From contig CBDCXV010000001.1 in the NCBI GenBank assembly GCA_965223905.1, positions 480,001-544,000 on the forward strand: 64,000 bases of DNA. Direction: 5' to 3'. The notes under the pieces are model-generated. The model made no database searches. It saw only the letters and a list, made by a program, of their open reading frames with translations, and was not told the DNA's origin. The translations under genes were made by a program, and so were the position numbers. Numbering within the stretch: the first letter of the stretch is position 1; every line of letters starts with the position of its first letter. Of the stretch, positions 7,842 to 14,739 are shown piece after piece. Source of the DNA: Candidatus Latescibacterota bacterium (GTDB lineage Bacteria > Latescibacterota > UBA2968 > UBA8231).

Positions 7842-9230
7842 ATGACCATCTCACGCAGGACGTTTCTCCGCAGGACCGCGGCCGTATCGGCCGGCTTCGC
7901 AGGTCTCCGCGAGCTTTCGATGGTGTACGGCGCCGAGGCCCCCGAACAGATTTTCGATTCTCTCGAGAAGGACCCGAACGGCCTGCTCGAGCTGCCGCGC
8001 GGCTTCGGCTACCGGGTGATCTCGCGGGTCGAGGAGCGCATGGCCGATGGTTTCCTGGTGCCGTGGGCTCCGGACGGCATGGCTGCTTTTCCCGCCTCCA
8101 ACGGCAGAACCTTGCTGCTGTGCAACTCCGAAGCGAGCCCCTCTGACGAGAAGGATGGGCCGATGGGGGAGCAGGCGAAGCTGCTGGCGCAGCTGCCGGA
8201 ACGGCTGGTCTACGACCCGCGCGAGGACGACGGCCAGTGTCTCGGCGGGGTGACGACCATCATCTACGACACCCGCACCGGGCTCGTGGAGAAGCAGTTC
8301 TTCAGTCTCGCCGGCACGGTGCGCAACTGCGCCGGGGGGCCGACGCCGTGGAACAGCTGGATCACCTGCGAGGAGACCACCGACAGGGCGGGGGACGGGT
8401 ACACAAAGGACCACGGCTACAACTTCGAGGTGGCCGCCTCGGAGAAGCAGGAGCTGCAGGAGCCGGTGCCGCTGCTGGACATGGGCCGCTTCGTTCACGA
8501 GGCGGTGGCCGTCGACCCTGCCTCGGGGATCGTCTACCAGACCGAGGACCGCGGCGACGGCCTCATCTACCGGTTCATTCCCGACAAGCCCGGCCGCCTG
8601 CAGGAGGGGGGGCGGCTGCAGGCGCTGGCTTCCTGGGACAAGTCCTCCCTCGACACCCGCAACTGGCGGGGCGAAGGGGCCTCCGCGGCGACGGAGATCC
8701 CGGTCGGGACCGAGTTCCCGGTGCGCTGGATCGACCTCGAAGACGTGCAGTCCCCCGACGGCGACCTGCATCTGCAGGGGTTCAACAAGGGGGCGGCGCG
8801 CTTCGCCCGCGGCGAGGGGATGTGGTACGGGAATGGAAGCGTCTTTTTCGTCTGCACCAGCGGCGGCCACGCCGGACAGGGGCAGGTCTGGCGCTACACC
8901 CCGAGCCCGCACGAGGGGACCGCCGGGGAGCTCGGGGCCGGGGCGGGAATGCTGATGCTCTACGCCGAGCCGAACGACAAGGGCCTGGTGGAGAACGCCG
9001 ACAACCTCACCGTCGCCCCGTGGGGGGACGTGATCCTCTGCGAGGACGGCGGCGGGCCCGACCGCCTGGTCGGCATCCGGCCGGAGGGGACGTTCTACGA
9101 GCTGGCGCGCACCGTTTCTTCGTCGGAGCTGGCCGGGGCGACCTTTTCTCCGGACGGCAGCACCCTGTTCGTCAACGCCCAGCAGGACGGGGTGACCCTG
9201 GCGATCACCGGCCCCTGGCCGGCCGCCTGA
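7842..9230 (+). CDS. phoX: PhoX-family (DUF839) alkaline phosphatase, Tat-exported
   Basis: SRRTFL twin-arginine signal; PDGM, NCAGGPTPW, TCEE, GRFVHEA, RGEG, ADNL, CEDG, SELAG, VNAQ. Confidence 0.88.
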   Translation: MTISRRTFLRRTAAVSAGFAGLRELSMVYGAEAPEQIFDSLEKDPNGLLELPRGFGYRVISRVEERMADGFLVPWAPDGMAAFPASNGRTLLLCNSEASPSDEKDGPMGEQAKLLAQLPERLVYDPREDDGQCLGGVTTIIYDTRTGLVEKQFFSLAGTVRNCAGGPTPWNSWITCEETTDRAGDGYTKDHGYNFEVAASEKQELQEPVPLLDMGRFVHEAVAVDPASGIVYQTEDRGDGLIYRFIPDKPGRLQEGGRLQALASWDKSSLDTRNWRGEGASAATEIPVGTEFPVRWIDLEDVQSPDGDLHLQGFNKGAARFARGEGMWYGNGSVFFVCTSGGHAGQGQVWRYTPSPHEGTAGELGAGAGMLMLYAEPNDKGLVENADNLTVAPWGDVILCEDGGGPDRLVGIRPEGTFYELARTVSSSELAGATFSPDGSTLFVNAQQDGVTLAITGPWPAA

Positions 9231-9239
9231 TCTTCCGCC

Positions 9240-10420
9240 TCAGCAGGCTCGCTCCTCGAGCCATTCCCTGCTGATCTCGAGCCCGAACCCCGGGGCGCCG
9301 CTGGGGACGACGAAGCCGTTCTCGACGACCGGGGTCCCCGGCAGTCTCACCATCTCCGCCAGCGGCACTCCCGGCGGGGAGACCCCCTCCGAGCGTTCGC
9401 CCCAGGCGACGGCAGGCATCGCGAAGGAGAGGTGCTGGCCGTACGGGTAGTTCATGCCGCCGTGGGCGAGCACGTGCTGGCCGTGGGCTTCGGCGAGGTG
9501 GCAGATGCGCAGGGGGCGGCGCTGATGCCGCCGACCCAGCGGACGTCGGGCTGGAAGATGTCGACGAGGCCGTTGGCGGCGGCGAAGGCGAACGGCGGGA
9601 TGGAGTACCAGTGCTCGCCGGTCGCCAGGATCTGGTGGGGAATGCGCTCCCGCAGCTTGACGTAGCTGCCGAGATCCTCCGGCCGCACGTAATCCTCGAA
9701 CCACTTGATGCGGTACGGTTTCAGGGCTTCGGACAGGCGCACGACGTACTCGACGTCGAACGACATCCAGGCGTCGACCATCAGCTCGCGCTCGTCGCCG
9801 ATCAGCTCGCGGGCGGTGGCGACCAGCTCCTCGTTGCGGCGCAGCCCCTCCATGTCGTCCTCCGGGCCGTGGCGGAAGAAGACCTTGACCGCATCGAAGC
9901 CGAGCTCGAGGAACCACTCGATGCTGTTCTCGATGCCGTAGTTGTGCCCGGTGGCGCTGGCGTAGCAGGGGATGGCGGTCTTCTGCGGCCCGCCCAGAAG
10001 CTCGTAGACCGGCCGCTGCAGCAGCTTGCCCTTGAGATCCCACAGGGCCATGTCGACGGCGCTGATCGCGTAGCTCGCCAGGCCGGAGGTGCCGTAGTGG
10101 GCGGTGGCGCGCTGCATCGCGTCGAACAGCTTCTCGGTGGCCATGCAGTTCTCGCCGGTGATCATCGGGCCGAGGTGGTCCTCGATGATCCCGGCTACGG
10201 GAGGTGAGAAACAGCCGAGGCCGAAACCCCAGGTGCCGTCCCGGGCGGTGACGACGCAGGCGACGTCCCGCCAGTCGCCCCGGGAGCGGGGGAGCAGGCC
10301 GGGGTAGCGGTGCATCGGGCTGACGATGGGAGGGGCGTCAGGTATCTCCGGAACGCGCGGCTTCGTCCTCTGGCGGGGTGCCGTCTCGATGGGGAAGGCG
10401 CGCACTTCGGCGATTTCCAT
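9240..10420 (-). pseudogene. Mandelate racemase/enolase-superfamily dehydratase (L-rhamnonate dehydratase-like), frameshifted near 9512-9516
   Basis: ISAVDMALWDLKGK, MVDAW, WFED, TGEH and QPD lie in one frame; the C-terminus LRICHLAEAHG...APGFGLEI lies in another; the break is in a G5 run, so the gene may be intact in vivo. Confidence 0.75.
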
Positions 10421-10542
10421 CTGTCGAATTCTCCGGTTTGTCTGGGTGCGGGGGAACCGCTATACTCGAAAAACCGTTCGCTCTCCCCCGCACCTCCGTT
10501 CGCAAGCTCCCCCCCATCTCCGGCTCTCCGCAAGGAAGGCAT

Positions 10543-13500
10543 ATGTCGCGTCGCGGCAGCAGGCGTTTTGTGGCCGACGTGCACCTGCACTCGCGCCACT
10601 CGCGCGCAACCAGCAAAGAGCTCAATCCCGAAAACCTCCACAAGTGGTCGGCGCTGAAGGGCGTAGACGTCGTCGGTACCGCCGATTTCACCCACCCGGA
10701 ATGGCTGGCGGAGCTGAAAGAGAAGCTCACCCCTGCCGAGGAGGGGCTGTACCGGCTGCGCGACGACCTGCTGGAAGCGGTGGAGCAGGAGCTGCCGGCT
10801 TCCTGCCGAAGCGAGGTCAGGTTTCTTCTTTCGGTCGAAATCAGCTCCATCTACAAGCGCCACGGCCGCACTCGCAAGGTGCACAACGTCGTCATCCTTC
10901 CCGACTTCGCCGCGGCCGACCGCTTCAACCGGCGCCTGGGGCGGATCGGCAACCTCAAGTCGGACGGGAGGCCGATCCTCGGCCTCGACAGCCGCGACCT
11001 GCTCGAAATCTGCCTCGAGGTCTGCCCCGAGGTGCTGTTCATCCCCGCCCACATCTGGACCCCCCACTTCGCCGTGCTGGGGGCCAGCTCCGGGTTCGAC
11101 AGCATGGAGGAGTGCTTCGACGACCTGCTGCCCCACATCTACGCGGTCGAGACCGGGCTTTCCTCCGATCCGCCGATGAACGGCCGCCTCTCGCAGCTCG
11201 ACCGCTTCGCCGTGGTTTCGAACTCCGACGCCCACTCGCCGCGCAAGCTGGCGCGCGAGGCGACCTGCTTCGACACCGACCTGTCGTACCGGGGGATGCT
11301 CGAGGCGCTACGCGACCGCGATCCGCAGCGCTTCACCGGCACCATCGAGTTCTACCCGGAAGAGGGGAAGTACCACTACGACGGCCACCGCAAGTGCGGC
11401 GTCTGCTGGACCCCGACGCAGACCATCGCCGCCGGGGGGCTGTGCCCGGAATGCGGCCGCAAAGTGACCGTCGGCGTGCTCCATCGCGTCGAGAAGCTGG
11501 CCGACCGCGGCGAAGGGGAAGCCGCGCCTGAGCGCCGGTTCGAGTATCTCATACCCCTGGAAGAGGTGATCGGCTCGGCCCTCGGCGTCGGCCCCAACAG
11601 CAAGAAGGTGCAGCAGATCTACCACGCCCTCGTCGCGCAGCTCGGCCCGGAGCTGGACGTTTTGCGGACTGCCGACATTGCGAAGATCGCCCAGAGCGGA
11701 GGCCAGCCCCTGGTCGCCGAGGGCGTGCGGCGGATGCGTAGCGGCAAGGTGGCGATCGCGCCGGGATACGACGGCGAGTACGGCAGGATCGAGGTGTTCA
11801 GCGACGAGGAGCGCCGCCGGATCGAGGGCCAATCGCAGCTGTTCGACATGGGGGCCGTCCTCGACGAGGAGGCGCTGCAGGCGGCCGAGGTCGTCGAGTC
11901 GATGGCGGGAGAAGCGGGCGGGCCCAGGCCGGAGGCCCTGATGGAGCAGGGCAGCGCGGTGCTGGAACGCCTGCTGTTCTCCGGAACCGCGCTCGACGAC
12001 GGGCAGCAGGCCGCGGTCGAGGAGCCGGCGGGGCCGGTGGTGGTTGCCGCCGGGCCGGGCTCGGGCAAGACGCGAACCCTGGTGCAGCGGATAGCCCACC
12101 TGGTCCGCCGCGAGGGGGTCTCGCCGGGCAAGATCTACGCCGTCACCTTCACCAACCGCGCCGCCGACGAGATGCGGCAGCGGCTGCGCGCCATGGACCC
12201 GCCGCTGCGGAACGTCGAGCGGGTATTCACCGGCACCTTCCACCGTCTCGCCCTGCAGCTGATGGGCAACTTTCGCCGGAGCCCCGAAGCCGCCGTCATC
12301 GACGCACAGGACGCTCGGGCCATCGTCGCCGCGGTGATCGAGGAACAGGGCGCCGGCTTGCGCCCGGCCGCGGCGCAGGAGCAGATCTCGCGGTGGAAGG
12401 CGGAGGGGCGGCTGCCGGCGCAGGTGCCGGCTGCCGAGGCCGCGCTCGCCGGCGTGTACGAGGGATACCGGCGGCGGCTGGCGCGCCTTGGAGCGCGGGA
12501 CTACGACGACATCCTCCTCGATTTCCTGCACCTGCTCGAAGAGGACGAAGGGTTCGCCGCCTACGCCGCCGGCTGCATTCAGTGCCTTCTGATCGACGAG
12601 TTTCAGGACGTCAACGCCGTCCAGTACCGCCTGGCGGTCAGGATGGCCGGCGACGGCCGCGGCCTCTTCGTCATCGGCGATCCCAACCAGTCGATTTACG
12701 GCTTCCGCGGCGCCGACCCGGTGTACTTCGACCGCCTCGGGTCGGCTTTTCCGGGAAACAGGCGCATCCACCTGACCACCAACTACCGCTCCGCCCCTTA
12801 CCTGGTGCGGGCAGGTCGTTCCCTGATCGGCCTTGCAGAAAAAGCCGGCGGCAACGGGGCGGGCGCCGCGGCAGCACGCGGCGCCATCCGCATGGTCGCG
12901 ACCGACAGCGAAATGTCGGAGGCGATCGCCGTCGTCAGGGAGATCGACCGCCTCGTCGGGGGCGCCGACATGATCGCGTCCGACAACGCCGCGGGAAGCG
13001 TCGGCGGGGAATACAGCTTCGGCGACGTCGCCGTGCTGTTCCGCACCGGGAGGCAGGCGGAGGTGCTGGAGACCTGCTTCCTGACCGAAGGGCTTCCGTA
13101 CCGCCTCATCGGTCAGCGAGGTTTCCTCGAGACGCCCGCGGTGCGCCGGGCGCTGGCCTTCTGGCGCTACGTCGCGCAGCCGGACAGCGGCCTGCGGCTG
13201 CTCGAGGGGCTGCGACGGAATCCGTTCAACCCGGGGCGCGCCGCCATGTCTCAGATCACCGCGGCAGTGCTAGAGACCTCCGGGCCGGTGGACCTGGCGA
13301 CCCTCGGCGCAGCGCTTTCGGAACGGGAGCGCGCGAAGATCGCGACCCTGACGGAGGCGGCAGGGCGCTACCGGAGCCGGGCAGGGGAGCCGCCGGCCGA
13401 CCTGCTGCGCTCCTGGCAGCAGGAGTTCGGTGACGCCGCGGCGGGGGAGGAGACGGGCTTCTCCCGGTTCGTCTCCCTGGCGGAAAACGCGGAATCCATG

Positions 13501-13893
13501 AAGCAGCTCCTCGAGCGGGTGGTGCTCGGTCAGGACGCCGACATCGAGCGCCGCGGCGGCGCCAGGCAGCCTGAGGCGGTCAGCCTGATGACCATGCACG
13601 CCGCCAAGGGACTGGAGTTCCCGGTGGTGCTGATCTGCGGCGTCGAGGACGGAGTGATACCGCTGGCCGAACCGGGGAGGGAGTGCGACGAAGAGGAGGA
13701 GCGGCGCCTGTTTTACGTCGCCGTTACCCGCGCCGGGAAGGAACTGGTCCTGTTCCGCGCCCGCAGCCGCATGCGGCACGGGCAGCGGGTGCAGTTGCAG
13801 AAGTCGCGGTTCGTGGGCATGATACCCGAGGCGCTCGTGCGGGAAGAGGCGATGTCCGAGTCGCGGCGGGGGCGCCAACTGAGCCTGTTCTGA
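10543..13893 (+). CDS. Fusion of endonuclease Q (PHP domain + Zn finger) and UvrD/PcrA-type SF1 helicase
   Basis: N-half: ADVHLHSRHS, GTADFTHP, PAHIWTP, ETGLSSD, NSDAHS, GKYHYDGHRKC..CPECG. C-half: AGPGSGKT, TFTNRAA, IDEFQD, GDPNQSIYGFRG, NYRS, TMHAAKGLEF, EERRLFYVAVTRA. ATG at 10543 follows AAGGAAGG. Confidence 0.92.
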   Translation: MSRRGSRRFVADVHLHSRHSRATSKELNPENLHKWSALKGVDVVGTADFTHPEWLAELKEKLTPAEEGLYRLRDDLLEAVEQELPASCRSEVRFLLSVEISSIYKRHGRTRKVHNVVILPDFAAADRFNRRLGRIGNLKSDGRPILGLDSRDLLEICLEVCPEVLFIPAHIWTPHFAVLGASSGFDSMEECFDDLLPHIYAVETGLSSDPPMNGRLSQLDRFAVVSNSDAHSPRKLAREATCFDTDLSYRGMLEALRDRDPQRFTGTIEFYPEEGKYHYDGHRKCGVCWTPTQTIAAGGLCPECGRKVTVGVLHRVEKLADRGEGEAAPERRFEYLIPLEEVIGSALGVGPNSKKVQQIYHALVAQLGPELDVLRTADIAKIAQSGGQPLVAEGVRRMRSGKVAIAPGYDGEYGRIEVFSDEERRRIEGQSQLFDMGAVLDEEALQAAEVVESMAGEAGGPRPEALMEQGSAVLERLLFSGTALDDGQQAAVEEPAGPVVVAAGPGSGKTRTLVQRIAHLVRREGVSPGKIYAVTFTNRAADEMRQRLRAMDPPLRNVERVFTGTFHRLALQLMGNFRRSPEAAVIDAQDARAIVAAVIEEQGAGLRPAAAQEQISRWKAEGRLPAQVPAAEAALAGVYEGYRRRLARLGARDYDDILLDFLHLLEEDEGFAAYAAGCIQCLLIDEFQDVNAVQYRLAVRMAGDGRGLFVIGDPNQSIYGFRGADPVYFDRLGSAFPGNRRIHLTTNYRSAPYLVRAGRSLIGLAEKAGGNGAGAAAARGAIRMVATDSEMSEAIAVVREIDRLVGGADMIASDNAAGSVGGEYSFGDVAVLFRTGRQAEVLETCFLTEGLPYRLIGQRGFLETPAVRRALAFWRYVAQPDSGLRLLEGLRRNPFNPGRAAMSQITAAVLETSGPVDLATLGAALSERERAKIATLTEAAGRYRSRAGEPPADLLRSWQQEFGDAAAGEETGFSRFVSLAENAESMKQLLERVVLGQDADIERRGGARQPEAVSLMTMHAAKGLEFPVVLICGVEDGVIPLAEPGRECDEEEERRLFYVAVTRAGKELVLFRARSRMRHGQRVQLQKSRFVGMIPEALVREEAMSESRRGRQLSLF

Positions 13894-13896
13894 ACG

Positions 13897-14739
13897 ATGA
13901 CGGACACCCGGCTGACGCAGCAGCAGATCGACTTCTTCAACACCTTCGGCTACCTCTGTTTCTCCGGCCTGCTGGCCGACTGCATCGACGGCATCATCGC
14001 CGAGTTCGAGCGCGTCTGGGAGCGGCACGGCGGCGGCCACCACGGCAGGCCCCACGACGAGGACCAGCGCTCCTGCATCGTGCCGTTCCCCGACAAGAGC
14101 GAGTACCTCAGCAGCCTTCTCGACGACCCGCGCATCCACGACATCGCCGCCGGCCTGCTCGGTGAGGACTTCAACTACACCAGCGGCGACGGCAACCTCT
14201 ACGTCGGCGACACCCGCTGGCACTCCGACGGCTACAGCGGCACCCGCATCCCCAGCATCAAGATCGCCTTCTACCTCGACCCGGTGACCGCCGACACCGG
14301 CGCCGTGCGCGTCATCCCCGGCAGCCACCACTGCGGCGACGCCTACGCCGACAGCCTCGAGCGATCCGTCAGGGAGAGCAGTGAGCAGTGGGGCATCCCC
14401 CCCGAGGAAGTGCCGGCCGTCATCGTCGAGACCGAGCCGGGGGACATCGTCGTCTTCTGGCACAACACCAAGCACTCGGCCTTCGGCGGCTCGGTGCGAC
14501 GCCGCATGTACACGATGAACTTCTACGAGCACGTCCCCGAGGAGCGGCTCGAGGATTTCCAGAACGTCCTGGCGAACGAGGGCCGCTTCTGGATCGACCA
14601 CATCCTGGGTGAAGAGATGCTGAGAACCGCGGGACCGGAGCGCATGGTGCACCTGCGGCAGGTCATCGAAAACGACTTCAAGGTGAAGGAAGTGCACGCC
14701 CGCCTGCGGGCCGAGCGCCCGGAACCGTCCCGGGGATGA
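13897..14739 (+). CDS. Phytanoyl-CoA dioxygenase family Fe(II)/2-oxoglutarate oxygenase
   Basis: LTQQQIDFFNTFGY, WHSD, GAVRVIPGSH, PGDIVVF..H..RR. Confidence 0.88.
   Translation: MTDTRLTQQQIDFFNTFGYLCFSGLLADCIDGIIAEFERVWERHGGGHHGRPHDEDQRSCIVPFPDKSEYLSSLLDDPRIHDIAAGLLGEDFNYTSGDGNLYVGDTRWHSDGYSGTRIPSIKIAFYLDPVTADTGAVRVIPGSHHCGDAYADSLERSVRESSEQWGIPPEEVPAVIVETEPGDIVVFWHNTKHSAFGGSVRRRMYTMNFYEHVPEERLEDFQNVLANEGRFWIDHILGEEMLRTAGPERMVHLRQVIENDFKVKEVHARLRAERPEPSRG

Follow-up and report, generated by a model that had tools for sequence, protein, structure and literature searches.

What would a bacterium gain by joining an endonuclease that recognises damaged bases to a helicase motor, and for which job would the combined protein be kept? 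The question is posed by one gene in a 64,000-nucleotide stretch of DNA from Candidatus Latescibacterota bacterium (assembly GCA_965223905.1, contig CBDCXV010000001.1, positions 480,001 to 544,000 of the forward strand), which is referred to here as the window and to which all coordinates relate unless another source is named. According to the list of open reading frames and its translation, the coding sequence occupies 10543..13893 on the plus strand, stop codon included, as a single unbroken frame that runs from an ATG at 10543 to a TGA at 13891-13893. Its product of 1116 residues is a fusion of endonuclease Q (EndoQ) with a helicase of superfamily 1 (SF1), and it is the only copy of EndoQ in its genome. 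An earlier note, made from the letters of this DNA alone, had listed an EndoQ and an SF1 helicase, both complete, together with a QLSLF motif at the terminus and a QSQLF motif at the domain junction, and each of these elements is indeed present in its place. The fusion is probably a housekeeping DNA-repair enzyme, in which a lesion-specific EndoQ is combined with a UvrD/PcrA-type 3'-5' helicase and two motifs of the clamp-binding type. The observations on which this answer draws are the anatomy of the protein, its intact catalytic and motor residues, the conservation and predicted disorder of its motifs, a wide and vertical-looking distribution, and an inverse distribution with endonuclease V (EndoV).

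The EndoQ module comprises residues 11-429 (10573..11829, plus strand) and contains the PHP catalytic, zinc-binding and C-terminal helical domains of the enzyme. It aligns with residues 5-393 of 400 in the structure of Pyrococcus furiosus EndoQ (PfuEndoQ, 5zb8) with an E value of 1.1e-41 when the whole protein is searched and 5.5e-43 when the domain is taken by itself, and it also matches the archaeal EndoQ structure 7k30 (E 2.7e-42). The NCBIfam model TIGR00375 is covered from position 2 to position 374 of 374 (E 7.7e-45, 153.9 bits). The layout of PHP, zinc and helical domains is the same from end to end as in the archaeal enzymes (P. furiosus PF1551, T. kodakarensis TK0887; 5zb8, 7k30-7k33), and the six catalytic metal ligands and most residues of the lesion pocket are kept with it. 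The metal ligands of PfuEndoQ, which were listed and mutated by Miyazono et al. (PMC5961232), are H8, H10, E76, H84, H139 and D193; they correspond to H14, H16, E99, H114, H170 and D229 in the fusion, and all six are invariant in a family alignment of 48 sequences (A1), as is H231, the equivalent of Pfu H195. The pocket residues T142, E167, G169, L170, S171 and N191 become T173, E203, G205, L206, S207 and N227, which are again invariant in A1 with the exception of N227, kept in at least 90% of the sequences. With H170 and D229 included, the lesion-recognition pocket is retained, and its sole difference is the replacement of Pfu L168 by T204, which is invariant across the family.

The zinc site of the module departs from the archaeal pattern. 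Its ligands in the alignment with 5zb8 are H282, C285, C301 and C304 (11386..11454, plus strand), equivalent to Pfu C249, C252, C268 and C271, and all four are invariant in A1, with a further cysteine, C288, being kept in about half of 118 sequences. The first position is thus an invariant histidine (His282, nucleotides 11386-11388) instead of cysteine and the other three cysteines are retained, so that the site is not strictly C4; given that histidine is able to ligate zinc, it is probably an H-C-C-C variant. Another histidine, His175 (nucleotides 11065-11067), takes the place of Pfu Trp144, a residue proposed as a wedge in the structure paper (PMC5961232), and both histidines are invariant in the 48 fused homologs. 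Besides these substitutions and Thr204 for Leu168, the fusion differs from archaeal EndoQ in having about 680 extra residues, made up of a linker and a complete SF1A helicase.

The helicase module, residues 484-1102 (11992..13848, plus strand), is of the SF1A UvrD/PcrA/Rep type. It matches residues 12-649 of 724 in PcrA (1pjr) at E 5.9e-67, UvrD (2is1) at E 1.8e-64 and Rep (1uaa) at E 1.4e-62, and it has the full 1A/1B/2A/2B core and the motor motifs in common with these proteins. Profile searches agree with the domain assignment of the earlier note, since the Pfam models UvrD-helicase (PF00580, 198.7 bits, E 2e-58) and UvrD_C (PF13361, 135.3 bits, E 5e-39) both score above their cut-offs and TIGR00375 is matched over its full length, at a score below its own. 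The Walker A sequence of helicase motif I, G504-PGSGK-T510 (12052..12072, plus strand), has G504, P505, G506, G508, K509 and T510 invariant in A1, so that GxGKT (506-510) is intact throughout, and the same is true of every residue (D685, E686, F687, Q688 and D689) of motif II, DEFQD (residues 685-689; 12595..12609, plus strand). The two kinds of protein part company at the C-terminus. Given that the match to 1pjr stops at residue 649 of 724 and that only 14 residues lie beyond the helicase core, which ends at residue 1102, the C-terminal extension found past domain 2A in PcrA and UvrD is missing and is replaced by a short tail with a clamp-type motif.

The bacterial beta clamp (DnaN) is bound through a consensus pentapeptide of the QL[SD]LF type, which lies exposed in a disordered stretch and most often at a terminus. 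The last five residues of the fusion, 1112-1116 (13876..13890, plus strand), read QLSLF on inspection, are encoded by CAA CTG AGC CTG TTC immediately 5' of the stop codon, and form a putative beta-clamp-binding motif. Conservation of a terminal QLxLF had been predicted in the earlier note, and it is found: an exact Q[LM]x[LM]F end occurs in 103 of 120 homologs, and 113 carry Qxx[LM]F somewhere in their final 16 residues, as against 11 of 781 crude flanking open reading frames in which a motif of the terminal type was sought over the same distance. Of the seven homologs that miss it, four end in QLSLW and one in QLTFL, another is truncated, and in the seventh the motif stands 17 residues from the end. 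Conservation extends to more distant relatives, namely the best 80 loci (36-55% identity) from a scan of one genome per species, where the motif is strict in 68, loose in seven and missing in five, two of which run off their contig and two of which carry the near-variants QLSLGF and QLPLKF.

The second motif, QSQLF (residues 430-434; 11830..11844, plus strand), is a putative internal beta-clamp-binding motif at the domain junction. Its Q430, L433 and F434 are invariant in A1, and Qxx[LM]F, as GQxxLF, is present in 120 of 120 homologs. What is such a motif doing in the middle of a protein? The stand-alone EndoQ enzymes of bacteria, which are about 428 residues long, occur in many phyla without a helicase and are 56-76% identical to the EndoQ module of the fusion, offer an answer, in that 34 (strict pattern) to 35 (looser pattern) of the 87 listed EndoQ relatives of at most 470 residues end in GQxxLF at the position of the junction motif. 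In 428-residue stand-alone enzymes, moreover, the glutamine lies 16 residues after GYDGEYG, a spacing identical to that of Q430 in the fusion. On the strength of this alignment and spacing we regard the junction motif as what was once the C-terminus of a stand-alone bacterial EndoQ; it is probably a clamp motif that has been retained, equivalent in bacteria to the PIP box at the C-terminus of the archaeal enzyme. Like the PIP box it stands directly after the helical domain; unlike the PIP box it is of the bacterial QxxLF type, and it has a second copy at the end of the protein. In archaeal EndoQ, deletion of the PIP box abolishes both binding of PCNA and stimulation by it, and beta-clamp motifs have been observed in bacterial EndoQ homologs (PMC4858679). 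The stand-alone enzymes of Bacillus pumilus and B. subtilis have been shown to be active (PMC5961232, PMC6202378), although these characterised proteins are distant from the fusion.

Between the junction motif and the motor lies a linker, residues 435-483 (11845..11991, plus strand), which is poorly conserved by column and predicted to be disordered by its low pLDDT. An AlphaFold2 model built from a 48-row alignment (mean pLDDT 81.1, pTM 0.58) contains two folded bodies, with the helicase block mostly at 85-95, and its pLDDT falls below 50 in residues 430-433, 435-445, 454-461 and 463-481 and in the tail 1106-1116, which places both QxxLF motifs in predicted disordered segments. On account of the whole-protein pTM of 0.58, the placement of nuclease relative to helicase is not interpreted. 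The genome encodes a DnaN of 385 residues beside recF, to which the fusion may bind through residues 430-434 and 1112-1116. A complex prediction for this DnaN with the tail 1072-1116 scored 0.64 against 0.69 and 0.65 for controls and counts neither way. A 338-residue open reading frame (L001:199-1215, plus strand, C1) lies directly upstream of dnaN-recF. The acidic spacer ahead of the terminal motif varies in length between strains, as is seen from a contig of public run X3, in which a 6-nucleotide insertion (GGAAGA) behind 13841 gives two extra acidic residues just before the motif, and from the close homologs P0002-P0005, which also have extra Glu residues at this site.

How might these parts work together? 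Helicases of SF1A move in the 3'-5' direction, and in nucleotide excision repair (NER) UvrD displaces the incised strand after 5' incision. EndoQ for its part nicks immediately 5' of a lesion, so that one of the resulting ends has a 3'-OH and the other, which carries the lesion, a 5'-phosphate (PMC4357722, PMC8307549), and its discoverers drew a helicase step after incision into one of two archaeal models (PMC4357722). In the scheme proposed here the beta clamp would hold the fusion protein on DNA, where EndoQ would flip out hypoxanthine, xanthine, uracil or an apurinic/apyrimidinic (AP) site and cut the phosphodiester bond on the 5' side of the lesion. The helicase, moving 3'-5' on the intact strand, would then peel off the strand that carries the lesion at its 5' end, after which a flap nuclease or 5'-3' exonuclease would remove that strand, a clamp-bound polymerase would extend the 3'-OH and a ligase would seal the remaining nick. 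In this scheme we infer that the clamp is bound, which lesions serve as substrates, that unwinding comes after nicking, and which partners take over downstream. The earlier description of the protein as a possible one-protein excision repair system goes too far, for the modules for incision and unwinding share one polypeptide, but strand removal, resynthesis and ligation would have to come from elsewhere.

The same parts could also be used in a different order, with the helicase acting as a lesion-search or substrate-preparing motor that presents single-stranded or distorted DNA to EndoQ. EndoQ acts on single-stranded as well as duplex DNA and has been linked to the replication clamp (PMC8307549), and one of the archaeal models makes do with a flap nuclease and strand displacement by a polymerase (PMC4357722). 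A motor of this kind would translocate along DNA, or open the duplex in the wake of a replisome, stalled or passing, that leaves clamps behind, and the strand would be removed by strand displacement as in the archaeal proposal. The presence of two clamp-type motifs suggests recruitment to clamps at or behind forks, and the many bacteria in which EndoQ stands alone without a helicase imply that unwinding after the nick is not obligatory. Against this, the sequence does not tell which step comes first and the flexible linker of 50 residues fits either order, while the action of UvrD after 5' incision provides a simpler precedent for nicking followed by unwinding. A searching or substrate-preparing role for the motor is hence considered unlikely, and the same applies to its placement behind the replisome. 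The order adopted here is incision first and unwinding second.

If the fusion is a repair enzyme, which lesions would it deal with that other enzymes do not? The two obvious points of comparison are the uracil-DNA glycosylase (UDG) family and EndoV, the products of ung and nfi, whose co-occurrence with the fusion had been put forward in the earlier note as a way to examine the repair reading. The genome under study, which is 93.6% complete, has UDG-family genes, and no EndoV was found in it. Within the phylum, represented by 140 genomes of at least 85% completeness, an EndoQ match is present in 103 genomes (one of them weak, E 2.3e-5), UDG in 138 and EndoV in 21. With UDG in all but two of these genomes, the fusion is not its replacement. 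The relationship with EndoV is of another kind: six phylum genomes have both EndoQ and EndoV (G002, G003, G019, G029, G052 and G080), 97 have EndoQ only, 15 have EndoV only and 22 have neither. Family f10 has EndoV in ten of ten genomes and EndoQ in none of the ten, and genus g4, which sits within the otherwise EndoQ-positive family f1, has EndoV in three of three genomes and EndoQ in none of them.

The inverse pattern recurs in a second lineage, the class to which the Geobacter argillaceus genome (G141) belongs. In its 121 genomes the corresponding numbers are three with both, 47 with EndoQ only, 30 with EndoV only and 41 with neither. EndoQ is thus present in 50 genomes and EndoV in 33, and the three with both compare with about 13.6 expected under independence; of these three EndoV hits two are weak or fragmentary and only one is strong. 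None of the 17 genomes in which the EndoQ frame reaches at least 1000 residues has EndoV, nor does any of five fusion-bearing genomes from five phyla. Stand-alone EndoQ avoids EndoV likewise, given that only three of the 33 genomes with short frames have it, one of them strongly. The short frames of this class, at about 410-590 residues, coexist with the fused ones of at least 1000 residues in a ratio of 33 to 17.

Where both occur in a lineage, therefore, EndoQ and EndoV tend to exclude each other, with the proviso that related genomes are not independent, and this mutual exclusion fits an overlapping function in the repair of deaminated purines. As UDG is near-universal and EndoV is mostly missing where the fusion is present, the non-redundant job of the fusion is most likely the repair of deaminated purines, the niche of EndoV. 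The two enzymes would resemble each other in making a lesion-specific single nick beside a deaminated base without a glycosylase, an activity that is predicted for the fusion, and their genomic distributions are largely complementary in the two lineages. They differ in that EndoV has an unrelated fold and neither a motor nor a clamp motif, and in that EndoV cuts the second bond 3' of the lesion and EndoQ immediately 5' of it (PMC8307549). A more specific proposal, which we put forward tentatively, is that EndoQ, here in its helicase-fused form, is a bacterial substitute for EndoV, providing a clamp-tethered pathway on a single polypeptide that incises and unwinds at deaminated purines, with the junction motif retained and the terminal motif newly acquired. 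Were this so, the two clamp motifs would let one protein fill both pockets of the clamp dimer or pass the task on from nuclease to motor, and bacteria would have a third glycosylase-independent excision route beside EndoV-dependent alternative excision repair and NER, one spread over many phyla including common gut Clostridia. The largely complementary distribution of EndoQ and EndoV also offers a concrete and testable reason for the lack of nfi in many bacteria.

A number of observations weigh against the interpretation of the fusion as a housekeeping repair enzyme. Some concern the protein itself. Its 153.9 bits miss the curated TIGR00375 cut-off of 326.6 bits, a threshold reached by none of the 103 EndoQ matches of the phylum, and by these scores it is outside the narrow TIGR00375 equivalog and inside the wider 'endonuclease Q family protein' grouping of NCBI (P0127, 71% identical). 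The helicase equivalog cut-offs are missed too, for PcrA (330.2 against 911.2 bits), Rep (303.9 against 951.45) and UvrD (289.1 against 1144.45), the scores being only about a third of what is called for in these families, so that, as judged from its sequence, the fusion is orthologous to none of the characterised proteins (EndoQ of TIGR00375, PcrA, UvrD and Rep). With His282 in place of Cys and His175 in place of Trp144, its handling of substrates may differ from that of archaeal EndoQ. The genome also has canonical UvrD/PcrA-like genes, one at 313 bits in an 829-residue frame, and these separate helicases leave the need for a dedicated motor unexplained. The junction motif, for all its constancy in close homologs, is strict in only 47 of the 80 species loci, loose in 27 and absent from six, decaying mainly in Bacteroidota and Desulfobacterales. 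Others concern the distribution. The inverse relationship of EndoQ and EndoV may rest on few independent events, the phylum pattern being driven largely by f10 and g4, and the pattern in the class of G. argillaceus suggests two clades; in addition, the 22 and 41 genomes of the two sets that have neither enzyme add up to 63. Finally, in the order of genome G140 EndoV was found in 0 of 121 genomes and the fusion in only six, from which it follows that bacteria without EndoV need no fusion gene. With EndoV at 0 of 121, that order was dropped as a test of the relation between EndoQ and EndoV.

Could the fusion act against foreign DNA rather than in repair? The earlier note had raised this too, as an attack on phage DNA. 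As an anti-phage or anti-foreign-DNA nuclease-helicase, EndoQ would nick uracil- or hypoxanthine-containing phage genomes, which the helicase would unwind and expose for degradation. Nuclease-helicase fusions are common in defence systems, and the helicase half matches the PADLOC models for GajB (best E 1.3e-73), GajB structures being among its matches in the PDB. These matches, however, reflect generic SF1 similarity and are below that to PcrA (246 against 330 bits). The surroundings of the gene point the same way, for its flanking genes are metabolic ones for PhoX, an enolase-superfamily enzyme, PhyH, a sulfotransferase and an SDR protein. The nearest upstream genes encode a PhoX-type alkaline phosphatase (7842-9230, plus strand; E 3e-73) and an enzyme of the enolase superfamily (MR/MLE; 9452-10420, minus strand). 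On the downstream side a PhyH-type dioxygenase gene (13897-14739, plus strand; Pfam PF05721, E 1e-12) begins 3 nucleotides past the stop codon of the fusion; being co-oriented, the two are probably co-transcribed here, and their pairing is not conserved in 80 related loci. No defence partner genes lie next to the fusion gene, and neither a defence-island nor a mobile context was seen.

Comparison across genomes leads to the same conclusion. Over 81 loci no cluster of neighbouring genes is common to more than five, fragments of the fusion gene apart. The EndoQ domain has no match in 50,697 phage records and one in 72,556 plasmid records, the exception being a stand-alone EndoQ, 30% identical, on a 733-kb non-mobilizable Brevibacillus replicon. 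Single-copy presence in 103 of 140 phylum genomes is unlike the patchy spread of defence genes, and the conserved clamp-type motif and the inverse distribution with EndoV fit repair. The comparative data lend the phage-attack idea no support, and a defensive role appears very improbable. Repair is favoured over a defence or mobile role because of the lack of conserved neighbours, the absence from phages and all but one plasmid record and the near-core, single-copy presence in the phylum. Taken with the metabolic flanks, these features also account for the housekeeping character assigned to the fusion. The earlier repair reading is in this way strengthened by comparative evidence, the inverse relation to EndoV included.

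The idea that faulty assembly or annotation created the fusion, a sequencing error having joined two genes, or that the gene is decaying, can in practice be set aside: short or split forms do exist in related genomes (17 of 102 strong phylum hits are below 1000 residues, one of them with an internal TAA, as are 33 of 50 in the class of G. argillaceus), but the frame is unbroken, gap-free contigs of two studies cross the joint, more than 100 independent homologs are full-length, the catalytic and motor residues are all invariant and, as weak evidence, both halves are matched by contigs in an RNA library. The contigs in question are 1411 nucleotides long and span 11381-12791, from the end of EndoQ across the linker to the start of the helicase; they come from public run X1, possibly the source sample (study P1), and from run X4 of another study (P3). 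Metatranscriptome run X10 contributes short contigs on both halves, which show that the sequence is present and not that it is transcribed, and stretches of the gene that RNA contigs leave uncovered carry no information. In the phylum, 85 of the 102 strong EndoQ matches lie in open frames of at least 1000 residues and the remaining 17 in shorter ones. The hit with the internal TAA is that of genome G055.

The spread of the fusion is far wider than its own phylum. PF27218 and PF00580 occur together in 119 of the 120 best database homologs, which have 53-98% identity and most of which cover 99% of the query. The scan of one genome per species gave at least 593 stretches, 591 of them confirmed by tblastn; these 591 stretches are not equivalent to 591 fusions, as one of the search patterns is a generic helicase motif, and full length was seen for the best 80, which match the query over residues 1 to 1116 or nearly so. 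These 80 loci fall in at least ten phyla, namely Gemmatimonadota, Latescibacterota, Bacillota, Chloroflexota, Desulfobacterota, Bacteroidota, Spirochaetota, Elusimicrobia, Cloacimonadota and KSB1, so the expectation that such fusions exist in other bacteria was well founded. The carriers in Bacillota include Moorella, Propionispora, Anaerotruncus, Pseudoflavonifractor and Enterocloster, among others, and those in Desulfobacterota include Geobacter argillaceus. EndoQ-sized relatives number at least 7,998 candidates, with 7,998 of 7,998 scored as significant.

How much of this is already in print? The reviews that were found still describe EndoQ as archaeal and present in 'a few bacteria', a statement that the databases contradict with at least 7,998 EndoQ-sized relatives and helicase fusions in at least ten phyla. 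Bacterial EndoQ homologs of Bacillus and Desulfovibrio appear with a domain drawing and total lengths in Fig. 9 of the discovery paper (PMC4357722), and three EndoQ families 'based on the domain organization', of which families 2 and 3 are bacterial, are referred to in PMC5961232, citing Shiraishi 2017. Relatives are named 'endonuclease Q family protein', 'UvrD-helicase domain-containing protein' or 'TIGR00375 family' by NCBI and JGI. Literature searches on EndoQ with helicase, UvrD, clamp and Bacillus pumilus found no description or assay of the fused protein. The earlier remark that no characterisation of this architecture was known agrees with the outcome of these searches for biochemistry. 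The architecture is nevertheless not unrecorded, for beta-clamp motifs in EndoQ homologs of bacteria, and a division into families by domain organisation, were noted in print in 2016-2018. The fusion gene belongs to a widespread, catalogued and biochemically uncharacterised bacterial family and is neither rare nor unrecorded. What is new here is (i) the finding that the junction motif aligns with the end of stand-alone EndoQ, (ii) the two family-wide histidines, one in the position of the first zinc ligand and one replacing Pfu Trp144, and (iii) the counts of co-occurrence with EndoV and UDG. If the fusion works as proposed, many bacteria would deal with deaminated bases through a clamp-coupled pathway of nicking and unwinding for which no assay has ever been made. 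The gene of this window is an ordinary member of the family and a good candidate for the first biochemical study of a widespread repair enzyme, and cultured carriers are available in species of Geobacter, Moorella, Anaerotruncus, Pseudoflavonifractor and Enterocloster.

There remains the position of the start codon. The frame of the fusion is open further upstream and its longest version would begin at a GTG at 10378, a start that is disfavoured because the gene would then overlap the minus-strand gene at 9452-10420. With the ATG at 10543, by comparison, a divergent intergenic region of 122 bp separates the two genes. Sequence inspection places the purine-rich, ribosome-binding-like AAGGAAGG (10532..10539, plus strand) just 5' of this ATG, and the N-termini of close homologs, MSRRGSRRFVAD or MRFVAD, agree with it as well. 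On these three grounds, the upstream element, the homologous N-termini and the intergenic gap, the ATG at 10543 is preferred and is the likely start of the fusion gene.

In three metagenome runs the summed depth of contigs rises several-fold at 11316-11442 and at 13475-13728, with many loose ends. A reading of these peaks as a change in copy number was rejected, for they coincide with the most conserved stretches, the zinc-site region and the late helicase motifs respectively, and they probably collect contigs from other organisms that have relatives of the gene.

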